A stretch of 64,000 nucleotides of DNA from a virus (lineage: Duplodnaviria > Caudoviricetes), in IMG/VR virus record IMGVR_UViG_3300022876_000002. One strand, written 5' to 3'. The notes beneath the pieces are model-generated. The model had not been told where the DNA came from. It did no database searches and was given only the letters and a program-made list of their open reading frames with translations. Below are positions 4,240 to 42,095 of the stretch, piece by piece. Both the position numbers and the translations under genes were made by a program. Numbering within the stretch: the stretch's first letter is position 1; the number at the start of each line of letters is the position of its first letter.

Positions 4240-5523
4240 TTATTCCTTGCCGAAGCCCAGGTGAGCAGCAACGGCGTCCAGGGTGGCGCCAGCGACGTTG
4301 ACAGTGTCACGCTCGCCAACAGCGGTCAGCTTGGCAGCCAGGGCGAAGACAGCCTTAACGATGGCCACTTTACCGTTGACTTCCGAGGACTTGTCGCCGT
4401 CAGCAGCTTTGACGTTGTTCAGCTTGCCGATGATCTGGTCGCGGGTGGTGTTGGTGAACTGGCCTTTCAGCTTGTTCTCGCGGATCGCGGCGATCTTGGC
4501 CTTGACGCTGTCCAGAGCGGAGATCAGGCCAGACTTGTCAGCCTTGGCAGCAACTTCGCCCGAGGACAGTTTCTTGGCTTCTGGAGCTTTGCCAACAGAC
4601 AGGGAAACCGAACGGATGGCCGAAGCGGCGTCGTTCAGGGATTCCATGGTAGGCTCGCTGAAGGAAGCGACCAGACGAACACCGGCCGACTGCGAGACCA
4701 GCAGGTCTTTGGAACCTTGCTTCTTGGCGTTGTACTTGCCGAAGGCAGTGGCGTCGGCTTTCAGGCCGGATACCAGGGTGCCGTAGGCAGACTTCACGCC
4801 GCCCAGCTCGATGCCATCAACTTTGCCAGCTTCTGCTACCAGAGCAGCGATACCGGCGTCGGTACCGGCGGTGGTGCCTTTGTTGCGCTTGGAGACGCCA
4901 CCCAGACCAGCCGAGGCGTAGTCGATGTAGACGTTCCAGCCGCCCAGCTTGATTTTCTTCTTGATGGCAGCGCCATCGTTGATGCGCTTGCGCAGTTGCT
5001 CGGCGCGACGCTGCAGACCATCAGCCTTCGAAACGATGGAGACGAAGAAGTTGATGATGGTGTTGAAGATGTGCTTGATGAAGTTGACGGCTTTGGTACC
5101 CCAGTTCTTCAGGGTTTCGCCGATAGCTTCGATACCAGCACGGGCCATCAGGTTGGCGTTGGCGATGTCGCCCATCGATTCGGCGCCGACACGCTCACCG
5201 GTGAACTCGCAACCCAGCTTGGCGGCAGTGCGCAGAGCACGGTTGTAGGTGTTGGTGAAGCTGATCGAGTTGAAGTTGCCGGAGTTCAGCATCGACTCCA
5301 TGCCTTCTACAGCTTCTTCCAGCTCTTCAACCGCTTCTTCGGTGGCTTCGACGTGGTCGGCCAGCTTTTCGATTTCAGCGGTTTGCTCTTCGATGACCGC
5401 GGTCAGTTCGGCGATCTCGGTCGCTACTTGCGCCTCGGCCACGTCACCGACGACTTCGGAGTGCTGGCCTTCTTCGTTCAGGCCCAGTTCTTCGGCGCCC
5501 ATGTAATTCAGGAGAGGATCCAT
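4240..5523 (-). CDS. Major internal head (inner-body) protein, phiKZ gp93-like family
   Basis: 427 aa with an acidic coiled-coil propeptide, EGMES/VGAES/AGIEA motifs, then IGETLKNWGTKAVNFIKHIFNTIINFF; strongly biased codon usage typical of an abundant protein. Confidence 0.8.
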   Translation of the reverse strand: MDPLLNYMGAEELGLNEEGQHSEVVGDVAEAQVATEIAELTAVIEEQTAEIEKLADHVEATEEAVEELEEAVEGMESMLNSGNFNSISFTNTYNRALRTAAKLGCEFTGERVGAESMGDIANANLMARAGIEAIGETLKNWGTKAVNFIKHIFNTIINFFVSIVSKADGLQRRAEQLRKRINDGAAIKKKIKLGGWNVYIDYASAGLGGVSKRNKGTTAGTDAGIAALVAEAGKVDGIELGGVKSAYGTLVSGLKADATAFGKYNAKKQGSKDLLVSQSAGVRLVASFSEPTMESLNDAASAIRSVSLSVGKAPEAKKLSSGEVAAKADKSGLISALDSVKAKIAAIRENKLKGQFTNTTRDQIIGKLNNVKAADGDKSSEVNGKVAIVKAVFALAAKLTAVGERDTVNVAGATLDAVAAHLGFGKE

Positions 5524-32844: not shown

Positions 32845-35052
32845 TTAAGTGTTAGGTTGTTCGTCGGCACGTTGGAGCATTTCTTCCAGCACCTGATCCT
32901 TGATCATGTTACTCGCATTAACGTCGAAGACATCCAGCGAACGGTCAGAAGCCAGTTCTTCACGCAGTGCATAACCCGAGTCAGACATCATGCTCGCTGA
33001 CATCTGTACCGCCACGTTCATATCGTACTCATCCGGCTTGACGATGTAATCAATGTCAAACGGATCATCTGCCCGCAAGATACGACGGGTAGCACGGGTA
33101 CGCAACTCCGGAGAGTTAGCCAACGCCAGGTTCTTGTTGATCTCTTGCGGACCAGACTGGCTATTGGTCAGACGTGCTTCGGTTTCACCTTTGTTACGGT
33201 TCGGTTTGTTCTGCAAGATATCCGAATACTTGTGCATGTCATTCGGCTTAGTCGGCATACCGTAAATGTTCGACAACGGCAGTGACTGTGCAGACATATC
33301 AGTACCAAACTTATCCAGCAACATGAAGTGCTGGTTGGTAATGAGTACCGGTTGGTCAGACATCACTTCCTCGTTGAGTGAGTCTGTAAAGATAATGCGT
33401 TCTGGTTTGTAGCTATATACCTCGCGCAATGCGCGGATGATCGCTACGCCATACAGTTTAGTGTCGGATACTACTTCAACACTGATCTGTGTCTTGCAGA
33501 CGTGGTCAACGAACTCTTCGATAACCGCCGGGTCAATGATTGCATCCCGTACCAGGTCCCCGAACTCTGGGAAACCTGTGTCGAAGAACTCTTGCAGCTT
33601 GAGGAACGCTTCGCCGTAATTACCAACCTTACGCAGCTTGATGACATCTTGCTGCAGGCGCATGCTGATAAAGTTGACCGACTGCTCCAGCAACATCGAG
33701 AAAATCTGACGACGGAATGCTGGGATGTTGTTTACCACGATGTCGGCAATGGTCCCGTCTGCATAACGAGGTGCCATATGACGTGGGATGATCCGAACGA
33801 TTACCCCTTTGTCACCGTTCATACCGGTCATCTTGAACTTGACCCGACCTGGAACCATTTCACGCAAGGTGATGTTGATATTCCAGTCTTTCAGTTTAAC
33901 GCGCTTATACCCACGGAACAGTGGGTTGATTTTACCCATGACACTACGGGTATAGTTGGCAAATGCAAAGCGCACGAAAGTGTCAAGTGTGTTGGACACC
34001 GGAATGTCTACACCGGCATTAGTCGACAGCTTATTATGGTACCAACGGATTACCGCGTTCCACATGTCGTTCTGACGGCGCTCATACCGATCCAGCTGCT
34101 TGGTATGCGTCTGCTCGATGTAATCAGTAGACCGATTGTTACTACGGTCTTTCATACGCTCACTGATTACTTCTACCGCCATTACTTCCGAGTTAATCGG
34201 TGCGCGGAACAAGACGTCGTGGTTAAGGTCTGGTGTACGCAGTGCCTTCTTGGTCAACGTGGTAAGTGCAGTCTTGCTATTGCGCTTACGGAAGCCCATC
34301 ACGATGCCGTCAGGACGGATACGCTCACCAGACTCTGGCAGCACCTTCGGGTTCTCGTCAGTACCGTTCAACAGCAACGGTACGTACTCGTCCTCATTAT
34401 AACTGAAACCACGAGTGTGCTTGAACATGCACTTGAGCTTTTCAGTCGCAGCCCAGTCGGTGATCGCAATACCGTCCTCCTCGTTGTAGTGGAAGCTACC
34501 AGCACAAACCTTGAGGTTCATACCGAACATCCACTCACCGGTCTTACTGACCCGAGGTGATTGACCGAAAATAGTACCCTTGGCAAATCGTGCACCTTTC
34601 TCGATCCGTGCCATTACCGCTGGATCGTAAACGTACTCGAAGCCGATATAAGTGTTCTGTGTGTTGTACTTAGGCAGCTCCAGAATGTCATAAGCGTTAA
34701 GCTCATCGTTCTTAAAGAGCAACCACATCGAACTCCACTTGTCAGTGATCTCCCCGCCTGGGTTAGGGCTATGTACGTAGAACACTTCTTCCACGATCAT
34801 GTTAGATGGCGCTTCAATGCGACGAGCGCCTTCCGAGTAGTTATACTCAGCCCCCGAAATCAGTGCACGCTCACTACGCCCATTGGTATCCACCGACTTC
34901 GGGATCATGTTACCGACCATGTACATACGAGTCGGAGAAGATACCCACGGGAACACTACCAGGTTAATACCAACCCCTTGTAACTCGGGGATCATTTCGT
35001 TTTCACGTTTAAGGTATTGATACTTGGCCTGGCTTAGATCTATCTTACCCAT
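32845..35052 (-). CDS. Non-virion RNA polymerase beta-like subunit (phiKZ gp71-73-like)
   Basis: YNEEDGI, KMTGMNGDKGVI and DIVVNN motifs of the beta DPBB domain; one uninterrupted ORF. Confidence 0.85.
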   Translation of the reverse strand: MGKIDLSQAKYQYLKRENEMIPELQGVGINLVVFPWVSSPTRMYMVGNMIPKSVDTNGRSERALISGAEYNYSEGARRIEAPSNMIVEEVFYVHSPNPGGEITDKWSSMWLLFKNDELNAYDILELPKYNTQNTYIGFEYVYDPAVMARIEKGARFAKGTIFGQSPRVSKTGEWMFGMNLKVCAGSFHYNEEDGIAITDWAATEKLKCMFKHTRGFSYNEDEYVPLLLNGTDENPKVLPESGERIRPDGIVMGFRKRNSKTALTTLTKKALRTPDLNHDVLFRAPINSEVMAVEVISERMKDRSNNRSTDYIEQTHTKQLDRYERRQNDMWNAVIRWYHNKLSTNAGVDIPVSNTLDTFVRFAFANYTRSVMGKINPLFRGYKRVKLKDWNINITLREMVPGRVKFKMTGMNGDKGVIVRIIPRHMAPRYADGTIADIVVNNIPAFRRQIFSMLLEQSVNFISMRLQQDVIKLRKVGNYGEAFLKLQEFFDTGFPEFGDLVRDAIIDPAVIEEFVDHVCKTQISVEVVSDTKLYGVAIIRALREVYSYKPERIIFTDSLNEEVMSDQPVLITNQHFMLLDKFGTDMSAQSLPLSNIYGMPTKPNDMHKYSDILQNKPNRNKGETEARLTNSQSGPQEINKNLALANSPELRTRATRRILRADDPFDIDYIVKPDEYDMNVAVQMSASMMSDSGYALREELASDRSLDVFDVNASNMIKDQVLEEMLQRADEQPNT

Positions 35053-35529: not shown

Positions 35530-37017
35530 TTACCAGGTGAAGTTAGCGTTGTTGTTATCTACGACAACGCTCGACTGACCGGCAGTTGTTGCTACAGTTG
35601 GAACCTGGATACCAGACATTGCTGCCAGCGCCGGGTTCATCTGCATCATGGCCAGCATAGCCGGGTTCATCATTGCAGACATCGGGTTACCCAGTGCTGC
35701 CAGTGCGCCCATACCTGGAGTAGGCATGCCCGGAATACCACCCGGGAAGGCACCTTGGTTTTCCACACGCTGCAAGAACGTACCAGACTTGGTGCAGTAG
35801 TAGATCACTGCTGCGTTGGTCAGGGTGTTGATTGCATGGTGGATCACTTGGTTGGAACCGAAGTCGATCTCGTATTTCAGCCAACGGTCACCACTCGCCA
35901 TTGGTGGCGGAGTTACGTTGAATCCAGCGAGCACAGTACCAGCCATTGGCTGAGCGATCTGCGATTGCTGGATCAGCTGCGCTTGTTGGTTTTGTGGCAG
36001 TACCGCTACCTGTTGACCAGCACCAGAAGAGTTCACCGACAGAATACCACCGAGAGCACCCAGGTTCGAGTTAGCAGCAGACTCGTCTTGGGTGTTGTTG
36101 GTGTTGTAATCCATCGCCGGTACTTGACGATAGATGTCAGGCAGCTCTTCCAGCTGTTCGGTCCAGCTGAGATCGATCGCGTAGATACCGAGCTTGTTGA
36201 AGTCCGCACGGAACAGGTTCTGGATGCGGTTCATCTGCTCGGCTACTTGCTCGTAGCAACCACAGAAGGCAATCAGGCGCGAAGCTACCGAAGTAGTGGA
36301 CTCGCTGCTGATGCTATCAGGATCTACCACACCAGGGATGATCGAACGGAACAGATGTGCCATCAGCTTGAGCGCTGCACGCGAGATAGAACGACCATTG
36401 AGCTCTACAGACTGGTTATCGGATTCACCTTCCGACTGTGCCAGACGCTTGACGATCTCGTTGTAGATCGGGAACGACGGCTTGGCTTTGTAGTACACGC
36501 GCTCGCCGCTACCGCTGGACGACCGACCCTGAGCACGCGACACCTTGATGTGGATGAAACGGTTGTCGTGGCCCTTGTCATCAACTTCCACCTGGAAGCG
36601 TTCCATCAGATCCTTGATCTCTTGGATTACGGTCTTCTTGACACCGCGCAGTGGCTCGATGATATCCAGGGTGTTCTGTTTCCAGCTGGATTTCTCTTTA
36701 CCGGTACCAGCAACACCCAACAGCACGATCGGGTATTTCTTGAACAGTTCCAGCAGGTGGATCACTGCCATACGACGAATGATCTTGAAGACTTCAGTCT
36801 CCTTGCTGACGATGTTCTCACACGCTGGGTGGAAGAACACTTTGTCCATGGTGTCCTTGGAGTCCAGGACTTCCGACACCGGCAGGTAAACGGACATGTC
36901 ATCGATCTTAACGTCGATTTCCTTATCACCCAGCTTAAGCACAATACGACTGTCAGGCTTGATGACACAGCCCCACGAGCACAGCATTGCTTTATACAGT
37001 TTGTTCAGATCGTTCAT
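35530..37017 (-). CDS. Conserved protein in the nvRNAP block (phiKZ gp70-position)
   Basis: 495 aa with a Gln/Gly/Pro/Met-rich C-terminal region; identity from synteny. Confidence 0.6.
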   Translation of the reverse strand: MNDLNKLYKAMLCSWGCVIKPDSRIVLKLGDKEIDVKIDDMSVYLPVSEVLDSKDTMDKVFFHPACENIVSKETEVFKIIRRMAVIHLLELFKKYPIVLLGVAGTGKEKSSWKQNTLDIIEPLRGVKKTVIQEIKDLMERFQVEVDDKGHDNRFIHIKVSRAQGRSSSGSGERVYYKAKPSFPIYNEIVKRLAQSEGESDNQSVELNGRSISRAALKLMAHLFRSIIPGVVDPDSISSESTTSVASRLIAFCGCYEQVAEQMNRIQNLFRADFNKLGIYAIDLSWTEQLEELPDIYRQVPAMDYNTNNTQDESAANSNLGALGGILSVNSSGAGQQVAVLPQNQQAQLIQQSQIAQPMAGTVLAGFNVTPPPMASGDRWLKYEIDFGSNQVIHHAINTLTNAAVIYYCTKSGTFLQRVENQGAFPGGIPGMPTPGMGALAALGNPMSAMMNPAMLAMMQMNPALAAMSGIQVPTVATTAGQSSVVVDNNNANFTW

Positions 37018-37030
37018 ATTGGTCTCTCGC

Positions 37031-38476
37031 TTACTTCTGCTCGATGAAGTATTCGCGCAGGTTATTCAGGAAATTGACGGACTCGGTTACACCGTTTTCG
37101 TTACTGGCGATGTTGGTGCTGGTACGAGCCAAGTAATACGTAGCATTCACGTAGCGCTCTTTAGCTTCGGTTTCACCATTGAAGTACACTTCGACGGAGG
37201 TCTCACCGAACAGCGAGCAGTTAACTACGATGTTAACCACGGTGCACAGGTGTGCGTAGGCGTTGTTGTACTTGGTGTAGAACTTGTCTTTGAACAGCTG
37301 CTTGAAGCGTTCCAGACGGTTGATAGAGTTCTGATCTTGGTCAGTGATAGACATCCACTCACCAACTACCATTTCCACACCACCGTTGTCACTGAGCCCG
37401 CCGAACTCGTGTACGTTGTTGGATGCTGCAAACACGATGTGAGTCAGACCAGTACGGATCAACAGGTCGGTAGTCAGCATAGCGATCTCTTGTGCCGTGG
37501 TTTCGACCATATTGGACGCACCATAAGCACTGGAGTTAGCTATCTCGTCACGCATTGGGAACCGCGCTTCGTCCAGCATGCTCAAGTCGAGCACGTCCGG
37601 CAGGGCAGGGAACACGTCACAGATCTCACCCAAGGTATAACCCTGGAAACCATTCCAGCTGTAATGGCCAGCACCAATTGCCATTGCCTTGAAGAACGGG
37701 TTCTGCGAGATAATCGTTTCCTTCATGCTGCTGCTGTACAGGCTACCAGCAACCGAGTCCTGCAACGACATGTTGAAGTCTTGGTCATGCAGCACGTTAC
37801 CAGCAATTTTCAGCAACTGCTTGGCATGGAACGTGGAGTCCAGGTTCTGCGTCTTGGATACCAGGGTGTGCTTGCCGAGGCTAGCGCCAACGTTACCGTG
37901 GTAGTGATCCTGACGGTTCTCCTGCTCAGTGGACATGTAACCCAGTACCTCGTTGGCCATGTCCTCAGGACGTACGGCGCGGAGCTGACGCTGTTGAGTA
38001 GGGTCACCCAACAGGAACTGGTCAGAAGCACTTACTGCTTGCTTGACCATCGGCATGCCGTCGTACAGATTGGTGATCGACTCTTTGGCTACAGTGTAGC
38101 TACGGATTGGTACCAGCATGGTGGCAGGATCGATACCACCATCTTCCATCAGACCGCCGCCTGCGCAGTAGAAGAGTACGGTCAGTTCCTCCTCTTTCAG
38201 CGCGTCCATCATTACCGAGAACTTGAGCATCGCCAGACCACAACGTTGGTTGTAAGTCTCTTCGATGTTTACCTGACCGCGTGGGTTGACAGTAAGACCA
38301 CCAGACTGACCGGCGATGTTGTTGAGCATGGACTCGACGATACCGCCTTGTGCTGTGGCCATCAGCATTTGGTCGATGTTCTGCGATTCCAGGTTAAGCT
38401 TATTGTGGCGGTGTACGTGTGGATGCACCGGGTTGCCCATGCCGATACGCGCCATGGTCATCATAATGTCTGCCAT
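37031..38476 (-). CDS. picA: Phage-nucleus protein import factor PicA/Imp1-like (phiKZ gp69-position)
   Basis: 481 aa directly after the gp68-like gene. Assigned from synteny and size, not from a motif. Confidence 0.55.
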   Translation of the reverse strand: MADIMMTMARIGMGNPVHPHVHRHNKLNLESQNIDQMLMATAQGGIVESMLNNIAGQSGGLTVNPRGQVNIEETYNQRCGLAMLKFSVMMDALKEEELTVLFYCAGGGLMEDGGIDPATMLVPIRSYTVAKESITNLYDGMPMVKQAVSASDQFLLGDPTQQRQLRAVRPEDMANEVLGYMSTEQENRQDHYHGNVGASLGKHTLVSKTQNLDSTFHAKQLLKIAGNVLHDQDFNMSLQDSVAGSLYSSSMKETIISQNPFFKAMAIGAGHYSWNGFQGYTLGEICDVFPALPDVLDLSMLDEARFPMRDEIANSSAYGASNMVETTAQEIAMLTTDLLIRTGLTHIVFAASNNVHEFGGLSDNGGVEMVVGEWMSITDQDQNSINRLERFKQLFKDKFYTKYNNAYAHLCTVVNIVVNCSLFGETSVEVYFNGETEAKERYVNATYYLARTSTNIASNENGVTESVNFLNNLREYFIEQK

Positions 38477-38497
38477 TTCTAACCCCTACTACCTTAA

Positions 38498-40054
38498 TTA
38501 ACTATTTACTTGTTTGACCAGAGCCATGAATTCATTCCTGATATCGTTCTCGATATCGATTGGGAACAAATCACCAGCGGAGACTCGATCGTAGATTACC
38601 AGGTCATCCAGTACCCCGTACTCGAGGTTGGACTGCCAGGTGCCATTACCAAACTGAGTAAGGAAGTCATCTGCGGCTAGCAGTGCTTCATTATAACCTC
38701 GGTTCTCACTATTGCGTGACTGTACGTCACAAATCGATGCCAAATAGTTCTTGTCATCGTCGCTCAGCTTAAGCCCCTCGGCCAAACTGCGCACGCCATT
38801 CGGATCGTGGATTGCACCCAAGACCGATGGTAGGTACTTATATCCTTGTTCGCTCAGTTTAACTTGAGCGAGGGCGATAGCGGCCATCAACTGCGTATAG
38901 TTACAAGCTTCCCAGATGAACGAGCTAACTACGTTCATATAAACCAGTTCCAGCAGTCGCAGGATATGGTTGTGGGTATCGAAGTCCCAGTTGATCGGCA
39001 GGTTGTCATAAACCTTCTCGACTAACTGTTCGTTCTTGATCTCCAATGCAATGCACTGGTATTTGAACCGATCTTTGTAACGTGGTGCATCGGTTTCGTC
39101 GAACAAGCCAAAGCTAAAGAACTCTGCTTCGGATTCCTGGTCGGACTCTTTGACGTCTTCGGTAATACCGTATTTGTCAAAGTTAGAACGCTTGTCTTCC
39201 TCGTCTACTCCTGGACGGTCTTCCTTGGGTTTGAATGTGGCGCTGGTCTCATGCTGCTTAACCGCACCGTTGATACTGTTGGCGATGTTCTTGTCGTATT
39301 CTGTTTCAGGGATTACCGCGCAGCACAGTCGATTGAAGATCGCGCTATACAGTACCTTGTCGATGAAAGTGTCGCCACTACCACCGCCGTCGATCTGCGT
39401 AGGTACGTCACGCTTGTTGAACGAGAACTGGAAGTAACTGTTGAGTTTCTCCCAACCAGGCATTTGTGTAATCTGCAAGTTGTCCTTGAGCAACTCGCCT
39501 GCTACGATCTCACTGAACCCTGCACCCATCCGACCTTCGAAACGTTGCAGGACGCCGAAGATGATCGGGTATACACAACGTACTACGAACAGGAATTTCA
39601 CCATGTTGACGTAGTCGATGTCAGTGATCGTGGTCTGAGCTGGGTAATCACCCTTGCTAGCGGCCTCACTCAGGTTCTTTGGAATCTTGAGGTACTTGGA
39701 GTTCTCGATGAACGCACAGTACTTCTTGATATTGATCAGATCCCACACACCGTCACAGATTGGCTTGAGCCTGGCGATCTCAGTATTGTAGTCGAGGAAC
39801 TTGCCGTGCTCTACAATTGAGTGCGCCCGATCGAAAAGTTTGAACAATTCGATTTTCTGTTCAGTGGTCAGTACCGCATCAACGTACTCGTTCATGCAAC
39901 TGAACAAATTGTTCTCGACGTCAGACTTGTCCTTGAGTACTTTCTCCAACTGTACTTTAGCACGTCCATGGAACTTTAACGTTTGTTCATTAAGAGATAC
40001 TTCGATCGCCTTAATGCCCTTTTTACCCGTACGCTTGATGTCAATAGAGAACAT
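38498..40054 (-). CDS. Non-virion RNA polymerase specificity subunit (phiKZ gp68-like)
   Basis: About 518 aa from MFSIDIK (AAGGT upstream); conserved position in the nvRNAP block. Confidence 0.6.
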   Translation of the reverse strand: MFSIDIKRTGKKGIKAIEVSLNEQTLKFHGRAKVQLEKVLKDKSDVENNLFSCMNEYVDAVLTTEQKIELFKLFDRAHSIVEHGKFLDYNTEIARLKPICDGVWDLINIKKYCAFIENSKYLKIPKNLSEAASKGDYPAQTTITDIDYVNMVKFLFVVRCVYPIIFGVLQRFEGRMGAGFSEIVAGELLKDNLQITQMPGWEKLNSYFQFSFNKRDVPTQIDGGGSGDTFIDKVLYSAIFNRLCCAVIPETEYDKNIANSINGAVKQHETSATFKPKEDRPGVDEEDKRSNFDKYGITEDVKESDQESEAEFFSFGLFDETDAPRYKDRFKYQCIALEIKNEQLVEKVYDNLPINWDFDTHNHILRLLELVYMNVVSSFIWEACNYTQLMAAIALAQVKLSEQGYKYLPSVLGAIHDPNGVRSLAEGLKLSDDDKNYLASICDVQSRNSENRGYNEALLAADDFLTQFGNGTWQSNLEYGVLDDLVIYDRVSAGDLFPIDIENDIRNEFMALVKQVNS

Positions 40055-40084
40055 ATTTTTAATACCTTGGCTACTCACTACCCT

Positions 40085-40104
40085 GATAATTTAGGTCTGA
40101 AATT
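40085..40104 (-). promoter_or_regulatory. Early-type promoter upstream of the gp68-like gene
   Basis: Minus strand AATTTCAGACCTAAATTATC. Confidence 0.5.
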
Positions 40105-40124
40105 ATCTTAGACAGCTATAATTT

Positions 40125-40155
40125 AAACCTAGGAGGGGATCACCCTCCTAGGTTT
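40125..40155 (-). terminator. Hairpin after the ChmC-like gene
   Basis: 13-bp perfect stem. Confidence 0.65.
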
Positions 40156-40181: not shown

Positions 40182-40940
40182 TTAGAACGGAATGTCATCT
40201 TCGAAGTCGTCGAAGTTGCTGTTCGACTGGTTCGGGTTACCGCCGCCATTACCACCCTGCTGGGTGCCCTGACGATAGCCACCACCACCGCTACCACCGC
40301 CGTTGAAGTCACCCTTCGGCTTCGGTGGCTCCCAACCATCACGTTCCATGCGGTCCAGGACTTCCTTGTGGAAGTTGACCCACGAACGGGTGTACATGCG
40401 CGACATGAAGCCGCTGTCTTCCACGATCTCGCCGGCGTCGTTGCGTACCATGACCACCGAGGAGTTTGGACCTTTGAAGCGGGTCTTGACTTTGTAGTCG
40501 CCTTTGGTGTAGACCAGGTTGATCACACCTTTCTCGTCACGCGAGATCGAGAACATGACCTTGGTGATCGGTTGTTCCGACAGACGCGACTGACCGCCGA
40601 CACGAACGAAGTCGTGCTTCTTAACGTAGAACTGACGAGCCGGGAACTCGATCGACATGTTCGAAGCTTCCAGCAGAGCTTCGAAGAGAATGTTGCGGTC
40701 GTAGCCGGACATCTCCACTTCTTTGTGCGGAGATTTCGCACCTTCTTTGAAAATGCCGTCGGAGATCTTCAGAACGATCTTGCCGGCGTTGGTAACTTCC
40801 CACATGAACTGTGCAGGGTACTTGCCACCTTCCAGCGGTGCATCCGTTGCAGGGTGAGGCTGGCGCCAGTCGTTCAGGAAGCTCTTCTTGCGAGGAGTGC
40901 CTTGTGGACGACCGCCATTGTTGTTTTGCTGGTAGCTCAT
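40182..40940 (-). CDS. chmC: ChmC-like nucleic-acid-binding protein with disordered termini
   Basis: 252 aa with Asn/Gln/Gly-rich termini around a folded core, next to the gp68-like gene; ends DDFEDDIPF. Confidence 0.55.
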   Translation of the reverse strand: MSYQQNNNGGRPQGTPRKKSFLNDWRQPHPATDAPLEGGKYPAQFMWEVTNAGKIVLKISDGIFKEGAKSPHKEVEMSGYDRNILFEALLEASNMSIEFPARQFYVKKHDFVRVGGQSRLSEQPITKVMFSISRDEKGVINLVYTKGDYKVKTRFKGPNSSVVMVRNDAGEIVEDSGFMSRMYTRSWVNFHKEVLDRMERDGWEPPKPKGDFNGGGSGGGGYRQGTQQGGNGGGNPNQSNSNFDDFEDDIPF

Positions 40941-41003
40941 TATTAAATCCTTGAAAAAATGGATACGCCTGGTATAGATTGGATCTACAGTGAGATTACA
41001 TTG

Positions 41004-41288
41004 CTACTTAGCTTTGTACTCAGGCATGGGTTTACCGGTGAAGTGGTTCTCAATGGCTTCTTCCAACCACTGTCTATGTCCAGACTCACCGTGTGCGATT
41101 TTGCTAAACAATTCGGGGATCAGTTTGATCACCTCTGCGGCCAGCCGGAAATCCCCAGTGGGGATGTCATGACCTTCAGCCGTATTGGTCATATCTTCCA
41201 AACCCACACCTAACGCGTGTAGCTTCTCTTTAAGAGTTGCGTTATCTGCCGGTGGGTACAGGCACTTGCCTTGGAAGTCAAGAGTCAT
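41004..41288 (-). CDS. Hypothetical protein
   Basis: 94 aa ORF with AGGAG upstream. Confidence 0.55.
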   Translation of the reverse strand: MTLDFQGKCLYPPADNATLKEKLHALGVGLEDMTNTAEGHDIPTGDFRLAAEVIKLIPELFSKIAHGESGHRQWLEEAIENHFTGKPMPEYKAK

Positions 41289-41297
41289 AAAGGCTCC

Positions 41298-42095
41298 TTA
41301 AAGCATGGAGATCAATCCAGCCCGCTCTACCCCTTGGGGTAAGTTCATGATTGTAGACCGAACCCGAGCGGTACTAGTAGCTGTTGTCCAGTTGGATTCA
41401 TCGGCGATGCGTTTTACTACCTCGCGGATACCAGCGATACTAGCTTGGAAGTCCGTAGACTTATCACCAAATACCTGAATAGTAAGCCTGTTCAGCGGAA
41501 TGTTGAACAGTTTACTACCGCCTGTCAGTTTTGTGTTCCAATCAGGATAAGCCTTCAACACCCCCGTATAAGACTCTAATAGTTTTAGCCGCGTAGTGCC
41601 ATTGGTTTCGCACAGATCCACTGGGTGGTGTGTCAATACAATACCGTTACCACTAAAGACTGGCATGCCTACGTCGGTTTCTACTATAAGCTTTTGGTAT
41701 TTCTCAAAGACCCGATCACACGTGGCTTTGATTGTCTTTGCAATGGCCTGCTGTTTAGCAGTCCCCTTAGTATGATCTTTGATATCAGCCTTAGGGTACT
41801 TACTAGACAGGCTCTTGTAAGACGGGTAATAGATGACAAACTTTACGGGTTTGCCATTACGATGAGTTTCAACGTATTTGGCTAAGTAGGCAATATCTTC
41901 CGCTACTTCCTTAGCCAGCACGCTTGGATCATGATACTCGGAGTCTTCCTTTGTGTAGGACTCTTGAGCATTGCGCACCAAAGTACGCAGATTGAACAGG
42001 ATAGAGTCGGTGTTTTTAAGCACCGACAAAGCCCCTTGTTCCAATGCCAAGGATGTCCCTACCGAGATTCCTAATGTACCGACGGTACGGCTCAT
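41298..42095 (-). CDS. Conserved protein, possibly a degenerate 5'-3' exonuclease/PIN-like fold
   Basis: 265 aa with DSILFNLRTLVRN and VLTHHPVDL; 4-nt overlap with the SbcD-like gene. Confidence 0.45.
   Translation of the reverse strand: MSRTVGTLGISVGTSLALEQGALSVLKNTDSILFNLRTLVRNAQESYTKEDSEYHDPSVLAKEVAEDIAYLAKYVETHRNGKPVKFVIYYPSYKSLSSKYPKADIKDHTKGTAKQQAIAKTIKATCDRVFEKYQKLIVETDVGMPVFSGNGIVLTHHPVDLCETNGTTRLKLLESYTGVLKAYPDWNTKLTGGSKLFNIPLNRLTIQVFGDKSTDFQASIAGIREVVKRIADESNWTTATSTARVRSTIMNLPQGVERAGLISML

Follow-up and report, generated by a model that had tools for sequence, protein, structure and literature searches.

Among the early proteins of nucleus-forming jumbo phages, ChmC, also described as Imp6, is one of the most abundant. 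It is essential, and it has variously been described as an mRNA export factor, a subunit of an import complex and a former of condensates. The protein of phage phiKZ, gp67, has been published under both names (as ChmC, PMC11077065; as Imp6, bioRxiv 10.1101/2024.03.27.586873). Here we describe a chmC/imp6 gene on a stretch of 64,000 nucleotides from a virus (Duplodnaviria; Caudoviricetes) in IMG/VR record IMGVR_UViG_3300022876_000002, hereafter the window, in which the gene lies on the minus strand at positions 40182..40940. The encoded protein ends in a tip closely resembling that of SSB, the bacterial protein that binds single-stranded DNA, and the conservation of this tip in the ChmC/Imp6 family is the subject of this analysis.

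Work by others on orthologues has established binding of RNA and single-stranded DNA (ssDNA), a tetrameric state, tail-dependent condensates and localisation, binding of Imp1/PicA and essentiality. PhiPA3 ChmC is a homotetramer with a dissociation constant (Kd) of 58 nM for single-stranded RNA and 184 nM for ssDNA; it crosslinks to phage mRNAs in enhanced crosslinking and immunoprecipitation (eCLIP), forms condensates and is located at the shell and in the cytoplasm. A version without residues 204-251 lost the condensates and the shell localisation and kept the tetramer and RNA binding (PMC11077065). In phiKZ, gp69 (Imp1/PicA) is a direct binding partner of gp67, with which it forms a 2:1 complex (gp67 + Imp1/PicA; bioRxiv 10.1101/2024.03.27.586873). 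In Goslar, ChmC is seen as puncta within the nucleus, and nuclei are small when it is knocked down; ChmC is also recovered, together with nvRNAP subunits and both DNA polymerase halves, in the pull-down of this phage's RNase H-clamp protein, Rhc (PMC13648698). In Goslar, phiKZ and PCH45 chmC was found to be essential or refractory to insertion. The word SSB is absent from the PhiPA3 ChmC paper (PMC11077065), and the searchable ChmC/Imp6 literature makes no link between ChmC and SSB.

In E. coli SSB a tetrameric core is followed by an uncharged disordered linker (IDL) and an acidic tip of nine residues, to which at least 17 partners are recruited; within the tip Pro and Phe are the most conserved residues, and the penultimate Pro is critical for partner binding, its replacement with Ser being disruptive (PMC10018359). 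The IDL is required for cooperativity, and phase separation of E. coli SSB is, going by its title, the subject of a preprint (10.1101/2022.01.17.476650). Tips of the SSB type are also carried by prophage DUF669 proteins, for which engagement of host factors has been proposed (PMC13687109), and by Bas52_0087 of a BASEL phage, which is proposed to engage SbcB (10.64898/2026.04.29.721553). These proteins are, like ChmC, phage single-strand binders with a non-canonical or divergent domain and an SSB-type tip, proposed to plug into the networks of SSB partners; unlike ChmC, to which they are unrelated, they have other folds (DUF669; two OB folds) and no phage nucleus. T7 gp2.5 has an acidic tail with an essential terminal Phe.

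An SSB-type tip in the ChmC/Imp6 family

The open reading frame (ORF) of the window gene is intact, with 252 codons, an ATG start and a TAA stop, and the encoded protein ends in ...SNSNFDDFEDDIPF, followed directly by the TAA. The last ten residues, FDDFEDDIPF, come after about 37 residues that are almost all Gly, Asn, Gln and Ser, and in an AlphaFold2 model residues 211-252 have a predicted local distance difference test score (pLDDT) below 50. E. coli K-12 ssb, translated here, ends in MDFDDDIPF, and its final seven residues agree with the FEDDIPF of the window protein at 6 of 7 positions, the exception being one exchange of Asp for Glu. The near-exact SSB tip behind a Gly/Asn/Gln linker, which a first-pass annotation of this DNA had pointed out, is accordingly present as described. 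An acidic stretch combined with a hydrophobic C-terminus is rare: one of the 360 stop-to-stop ORFs of at least 60 amino acids in the window has it, namely ChmC, and there is no second tip-bearing protein in the window. Erwinia phage Joad has it in 3 of 1181 ORFs.

The first-pass annotation had named conservation of the tail in homologues as a check of its idea, and the tail is conserved. In an alignment of the 31 closest homologues the terminal Phe (F252) never changes and D244 is conserved to at least 90%, while the linker is free to differ in both length and sequence. When 1.8 billion cluster representatives (50% identity) were searched with a profile, 312 matched at E <= 1e-3, and the best 150 of them were examined. 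The C-terminal residue is F, W, M, Y or L in 134 of these 150 representatives (89%). Counted from the C-terminus, the commonest residues are Phe at -7 (43 proteins), Asp at -6 (88), -5 (96) and -4 (112), Ile at -3 (64, with Leu in another 38), Pro at -2 (98) and Phe at -1 (87), and these seven majority residues together spell the E. coli SSB tip exactly. The linkers of the family consist of 33% G, 18% N, 9% S and 5% Q. Since the search profile included the tail columns, the representatives were stripped of their last 45 residues and re-scored as a control, at full database size, with a hidden Markov model (HMM) of the core columns only. At E <= 1e-3, 86 of the 150 pass, and 90% of these core-confirmed proteins end in F, W, Y, M or L, 63% end in hydrophobic-Pro-hydrophobic and in 83% three or more of the last eight residues are acidic.

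What is universal in the family is, in our view, a run of acidic residues and a free C-terminus that is hydrophobic, in most cases with Ile or Leu at -3; the exact SSB ending is the majority form, and the window protein has it. Individual phages illustrate the range of forms. The orthologue of Joad has the SSB hexapeptide unchanged at its end, and near-copies are found in pEa_SNUABM_37 and Salmonella phage SA002; the tips of RP12 and LucasX end in Trp or Met, and those of phiKZ and PhiPA3 have one extra residue between Pro and Phe. Within the searchable literature this family-wide SSB-type tip is an unreported element of ChmC.

The invariance of the terminal Phe beside a freely varying linker, together with the fixed register from the C-terminus, argues that the tip is under selection. 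An explanation of the tip as a chance likeness or an artefact of ORF calling can be regarded as refuted, because the motif is unique among the 360 window ORFs and recurs position by position across the family, and the gene has a Shine-Dalgarno sequence, a terminator hairpin and more than 300 homologues.

Orthology and core fold

The window gene is the orthologue of chmC/imp6 in an uncultured jumbo phage that forms a nucleus (Chimalliviridae), and the label "ChmC-like" given to it in the first-pass annotation proved to be correct. This assignment is based on a shared PHROG, profile-profile homology, synteny and fold class. The window protein falls in phrog_3284 (E 4e-53), as does phiKZ gp67 (E 6e-80), and the profile of the 31 homologues aligned by hhalign with a profile of 11 phiKZ-clade proteins, among them those of phiKZ, PhiPA3, 201phi2-1 and Goslar, with a probability of 99.9% and an E-value of 1.3e-32 over 192 columns that span the whole core and exclude the tail. 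Five consecutive window genes share PHROG families with phiKZ gp66-gp70, one to one and in the same order. Similarity at the level of BLAST is confined to one branch of the family: the nearest cultured relatives, Erwinia phages Joad and RisingSun and Pseudomonas phage EL, at about 55% identity, followed by OBP and then by jumbo phages of Vibrio, Aeromonas and Klebsiella. Phages of the phiKZ type are absent among the 69 tblastn matches of the window protein, and no family was matched in a Pfam scan of the protein. No relevant PDB sequence was retrieved with the protein, with the family profile or with only the tail as the query.

Like the described ChmC/Imp6 proteins (PhiPA3 gp61, phiKZ gp67, Goslar gp176 and 201phi2-1 gp123), the window protein has the family PHROG, the homologous core, the gene position, a Whirly-like fold and an N/G-rich disordered tail with an acidic end. 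It differs from them in that it has no BLAST-level similarity to the characterised members of the phiKZ clade, in that it sits in the branch of the EL, RisingSun, Vibrio and Aeromonas phages, and in that its tip is nearer to the bacterial SSB tip than are those of phiKZ, PhiPA3 or Goslar. Taken by itself the gene is an orthologue of the ordinary kind, a new member of a known family.

The core was modelled with AlphaFold2 on the 31-sequence alignment (mean pLDDT 75). Ten-residue blocks between residues 31 and 200 have pLDDT values mostly of 86-96, with a dip to 68 at residues 61-70, and the predicted topology comprises two four-strand sheets and helices at residues 79-92 and 176-202. When the model was compared by VIA-align with 48,161 representative PDB chains, the four best matches were Pur-alpha (Z 7.8), PBF-2 Whirly (6.4), StWhy2 (6.4) and MRP1/2 (6.2). 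Foldseek returned no match in the PDB at E <= 0.001; its best matches, PURA, MRP1/2 and WHY2, were weak (E about 0.02). Atlas gave a weak Whirly lead (0.80). As all top structural matches belong to one class and the protein is homologous to ChmC, the core is predicted to have a Whirly/PUR-type fold and not an OB fold, the Z values being moderate. A Whirly-type fold, likewise from an AlphaFold prediction and without a PDB entry, has been reported for PhiPA3 ChmC.

The proteins of this structural class (plant PBF-2 and Why2, PUR-alpha and MRP1/2 of T. brucei) bind ssDNA or RNA on a beta-sheet face, and they are the best structural matches of the window protein over 116-135 aligned residues at Z 6.2-7.8. 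The window protein is nevertheless outside the Whirly sequence family, with no match to PF08536 (plant and organelle Whirly) at E <= 1, and Z values below 8 denote only a moderate likeness. To our knowledge, an SSB-type tail is not a feature of Whirly, PUR-alpha or MRP1/MRP2 proteins. The window protein does not match PF00436, the OB fold of SSB, at E <= 1 either, and PF08804 (T4 gp32), PF10991 (Enc34/T7-2.5-type) and PF05037 (DUF669) were unmatched in the Pfam scan. Membership in the SSB family was considered for the window protein and rejected for lack of the OB fold.

The first-pass annotation had concluded that the protein copies the architecture of SSB. This holds for the linker and the tip; it does not hold for the binding domain, which is of the predicted Whirly/PUR type. 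Common to ChmC and bacterial SSB (E. coli Ssb, PF00436) are a nucleic-acid-binding core, a disordered linker of low charge rich in Gly, Gln and Asn, and an acidic tip ending in Ile-Pro-Phe. The characterised ChmC orthologue is also homotetrameric, and condensates or cooperativity depend on the tail in both systems. In contrast to SSB, it prefers RNA over ssDNA.

Function of the tip

We favour, with a probability of about 0.7, the explanation that this ChmC/Imp6 orthologue combines a Whirly/PUR core and a disordered linker with a conserved tip that works like the C-terminus of SSB. From the orthology, the fold class, the disorder of the tail and the position-specific conservation of the tip we infer a docking role, and by analogy with SSB the tip is most likely a docking and self-regulating peptide. 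The core would bind single-stranded nucleic acid, and the non-conserved Gly/Asn-rich linker would join it to the conserved acidic tip with its free carboxylate; this would be the same three-part plan as in bacterial SSB, carried out on a different fold. As a motif that docks in the manner of a peptide in a pocket, the tip would enable ChmC on nascent phage RNA, and probably on ssDNA, to tether partner enzymes. The tip would probably also fold back on the basic binding face and tune nucleic-acid binding, and the linker may, together with the tip, give the weak multivalent contacts behind condensates.

With an SSB-type function, the "disordered acidic tail" would become a short, defined linear motif for which a toolkit is at hand (tip peptides, mutants of Pro and Phe, and pockets of known architecture). 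Specific partners are then predicted to dock there, and condensate formation by the linker is predicted to be separable from recruitment by the tip.

Several observations weigh against a docking tip of the SSB type. The account of the tail by the authors of the ChmC study, an N/G-rich driver of condensates and an S/D/E-rich "electronegative cluster", fits their data (PMC11077065). A "gp67-FLAG" protein of phiKZ still bound Imp1, and if that tag was C-terminal, binding of Imp1 needs no free tip (bioRxiv 10.1101/2024.03.27.586873). Moreover, 64 of the 150 representatives, which were collected with the tail-containing profile, are below the strict core-only cut. The tip is not uniform, about 10% of the representatives having no hydrophobic end, and the tips of Goslar, 201phi2-1 and Yong XC31 are degenerate. 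Finally, in the well-supported clade of the window protein (44 rows of a tree of the core) 29 proteins have Asp or Glu at -2, giving endings of Ile/Val-Asp-Phe, and 5 have a Pro-type tip.

The first of these points leads to the possibility that the tail is a generic disordered one, in which an N/G-rich stretch drives condensates and an electronegative cluster defined by composition provides solubility; there would be no specific partner, and the likeness to SSB would be compositional convergence. This is the published account, the loss of condensates and shell localisation on deletion of residues 204-251 is in line with it, and so are the degenerate tips in the family. We nonetheless give it little credence. 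Composition fails to explain the fixed register of an aromatic residue at -7, three acidic residues, Ile or Leu at -3, Pro at -2 and Phe at -1, and it leaves unexplained an invariant terminal Phe beside a freely varying linker. The published deletion removed linker and tip together and therefore cannot separate the contribution of one from that of the other. We read the tip as a docking peptide because a cluster of charge alone needs no fixed register at the extreme C-terminus.

If the tip docks, the partner may be of phage or of host origin. The distribution of the Pro at -2 is informative in this respect. The core tree has two large groups, and a Pro-type tip is found in 56 of the 78 proteins of the larger one. 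The five Pro-type tips in the window clade are those of the window protein, its two nearest relatives and the metagenomic proteins P0062 and P0070. The orthologue of EL, a P. aeruginosa phage, lacks the penultimate Pro. Joad, a cultured relative outside the tree, also keeps a Pro-type ending. Ile and Leu at -3 are scattered when mapped on the tree, with 17 changes among 62 rows.

The first-pass annotation had also raised the recruitment or titration of host SSB-interacting enzymes. In a host-directed form of the idea the tip would be a mimic or decoy that captures or titrates such enzymes, for example ExoI, RecQ, RecJ, RNase HI, PriA or the chi subunit of Pol III, and these enzymes would be kept off phage nucleic acids or passed to the Imp1 import complex. 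The 6/7 agreement with E. coli SSB and the exact hexapeptide in Joad speak for mimicry, and the listed cultured hosts are all Proteobacteria, with the SSBs that were checked (E. coli, Klebsiella, Salmonella and P. aeruginosa) ending in DDDIPF (PMC4137731). The proposals for prophage DUF669 proteins and Bas52_0087 are precedents, the import factor Imp1 is a binding partner of ChmC/Imp6, and a host topoisomerase is among the proteins imported. We consider mimicry unlikely all the same. The Pro that is critical for binding of SSB partners is replaced in most tips of the window clade and is missing in EL, phiKZ and PhiPA3 carry the inserted residue between Pro and Phe, and according to the introductions of papers on the phage nucleus, the latter excludes most host proteins.

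Since the clade lost Pro although the SSBs of P. aeruginosa, Klebsiella and Salmonella keep DDDIPF, we lean towards a phage partner: on the sequences compared, the loss of Pro in a whole clade including EL looks like co-evolution with a phage partner and not like strict host mimicry, and Pro versus Asp/Glu at -2 is a possible marker of such co-evolution. The other half of the earlier idea, that phage partners are bound in the way SSB binds its own, is hence the better-supported one. Phage-encoded machinery of the nucleus would be the more likely partner, and host SSB-interacting enzymes are possible for the window protein since its Pro-Phe ending is kept. Candidate partners of the tip are Imp1/PicA, which binds phiKZ gp67, and Rhc, the DNA polymerase halves and the nvRNAP subunits, which appear with ChmC in the Goslar pull-down.

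A specific version of the docking explanation, and not its opposite, would make ChmC an SSB for replication or repair, a protein that otherwise seems to be missing from Chimalliviridae. In that case the tip would recruit the replisome (Rhc, the split DNA polymerase, helicase and SbcCD) to ssDNA within the nucleus of the phage, and mRNA binding would be a second job. PF00436, PF08804, PF05037 and PF10991 had no match in five completely sequenced cultured relatives, phiKZ, PhiPA3, Goslar, EL and Joad, in a search run without a phage positive control, and the searchable literature names no SSB for nucleus-forming jumbo phages. Consistent with an SSB role, PhiPA3 ChmC is tetrameric and binds ssDNA, Goslar ChmC forms nuclear puncta and gives small nuclei on knockdown, the Rhc pull-down holds ChmC and both DNA polymerase halves, and chmC lies two genes from the gene of an SbcD-like nuclease. 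On the other hand, ChmC has an about threefold preference for RNA in vitro and is crosslinked to phage mRNAs in eCLIP, PhiPA3 ChmC is located in the cytoplasm and at the shell, the four HMM families could miss a divergent SSB, and host SSB may be imported into the nucleus. We regard this version as a tentative possibility.

One may speculate further that ChmC/Imp6 is a Whirly-fold analogue of SSB and a hub of the phage nucleus, where the tip recruits the replication and transcription machinery and could license host enzymes with pockets for the SSB tip (topoisomerases, helicases and nucleases) for import or exclusion. The licensing part is suggested by the position of ChmC on the Imp1/PicA import complex. 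This extended idea is very doubtful; if true, it would name the "missing SSB" of the Chimalliviridae and a signal for cargo selection.

Genomic context and signals of the gene

The features of the locus are listed in Table 1; the G+C content of the window is 50%. The genes are ordered as ChmA, nvRNAP, SbcD-like, gp66-type, a 94-aa ORF, ChmC, gp68-type, gp69/Imp1-type, gp70-type, nvRNAP beta, nvRNAP and helicase, and the flanking SbcD-like, nvRNAP, ChmA and helicase genes are colinear with those of phiKZ.

Table 1. Position of the chmC/imp6 orthologue, the parts of its product and neighbouring features in the window.
Feature	Coordinates	Strand	Basis
chmC/imp6 orthologue	40182..40940	-	252-aa ORF and translation; phrog_3284; hhalign; stop codon 40182-40184
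Predicted Whirly/PUR-type nucleic-acid-binding core, residues ~16-205	40326..40895	-	AlphaFold2 and structural matches
Disordered Gly/Asn/Gln/Ser-rich linker, residues 206-242	40215..40325	-	pLDDT < 50 from residue 211; variable among homologues
Acidic SSB-type C-terminal tip, residues 243-252	40185..40214	-	Read from sequence; SSB match 6/7
Shine-Dalgarno AAGGA	40948..40952	-	Read from sequence; 8 nt upstream of chmC ATG
Candidate intrinsic terminator, 12-bp GC-rich hairpin	40126..40154	-	About 30 nt past chmC stop
Promoter-like motif ahead of phiKZ gp68-type nvRNAP gene	40085..40102	-	Resemblance to EL stretch only
phiKZ gp68-type gene (nvRNAP subunit), downstream synteny anchor	38498..40078	-	phrog_3209, as phiKZ gp68
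Imp1/PicA-position gene	37031..38476	-	phrog_3141, E 1e-77; same PHROG as phiKZ gp69
phiKZ gp66-type gene, upstream synteny anchor	41298..42095	-	phrog_3229; BLASTP to phiKZ gp66 E 7e-20

The hairpin downstream of chmC is likely its intrinsic terminator. The 101-nt stretch that contains it has a fold energy of -32.2 kcal/mol (z = -4.4 compared to shuffles), and the EL orthologue, gp32, likewise has an equivalent hairpin after its stop. The motif ACCTAnATTATC is common to the window and to a stretch of EL after gp32 that is annotated as "putative phage promoter". The arrangement of hairpin and then motif is seen at 40085-40154 (-) in the window and at positions 4685-4755 of the EL sequence (L012), which, as far as can be read from the two sequences, suggests a terminator-promoter unit conserved between chmC and the gp68-type nvRNAP gene.

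A tip of similar appearance is found on a second protein of Joad. Its gp111 (L028 792-2312; 506 aa, phrog_38204, a PHROG of unknown function, and without a Pfam match) ends in acidic residues followed by Leu-Pro-Phe, and its gene lies between those of an NAD-dependent ligase and RNase HI. Neither gp111 nor the RNase HI of Joad has a tblastn match in the window.

Between the gp66-type gene and chmC an ORF of 94 amino acids (41004-41288, minus strand) has neither a PHROG nor a Pfam match. At the corresponding position in EL, Joad, phiKZ and PhiPA3 the genes are separated by no more than a short gap, and the ORF may have been inserted specifically in this lineage, or it may not be a gene. Opposite chmC runs an antisense ORF of 192 amino acids (40368-40946, plus strand). 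Long antisense ORFs such as this one and 36896-38482 (+) overlay genes of the minus strand almost exactly, and most likely they result from codon composition and are not genes.

The nvRNAP beta-type ORF at 32845-35052 (minus strand) is a single one of 735 amino acids that matches both gp71 and gp73 of phiKZ in BLASTP. In phiKZ these two are separate ORFs with gp72 between them, so that the nvRNAP beta-type subunit is uninterrupted in the window phage.

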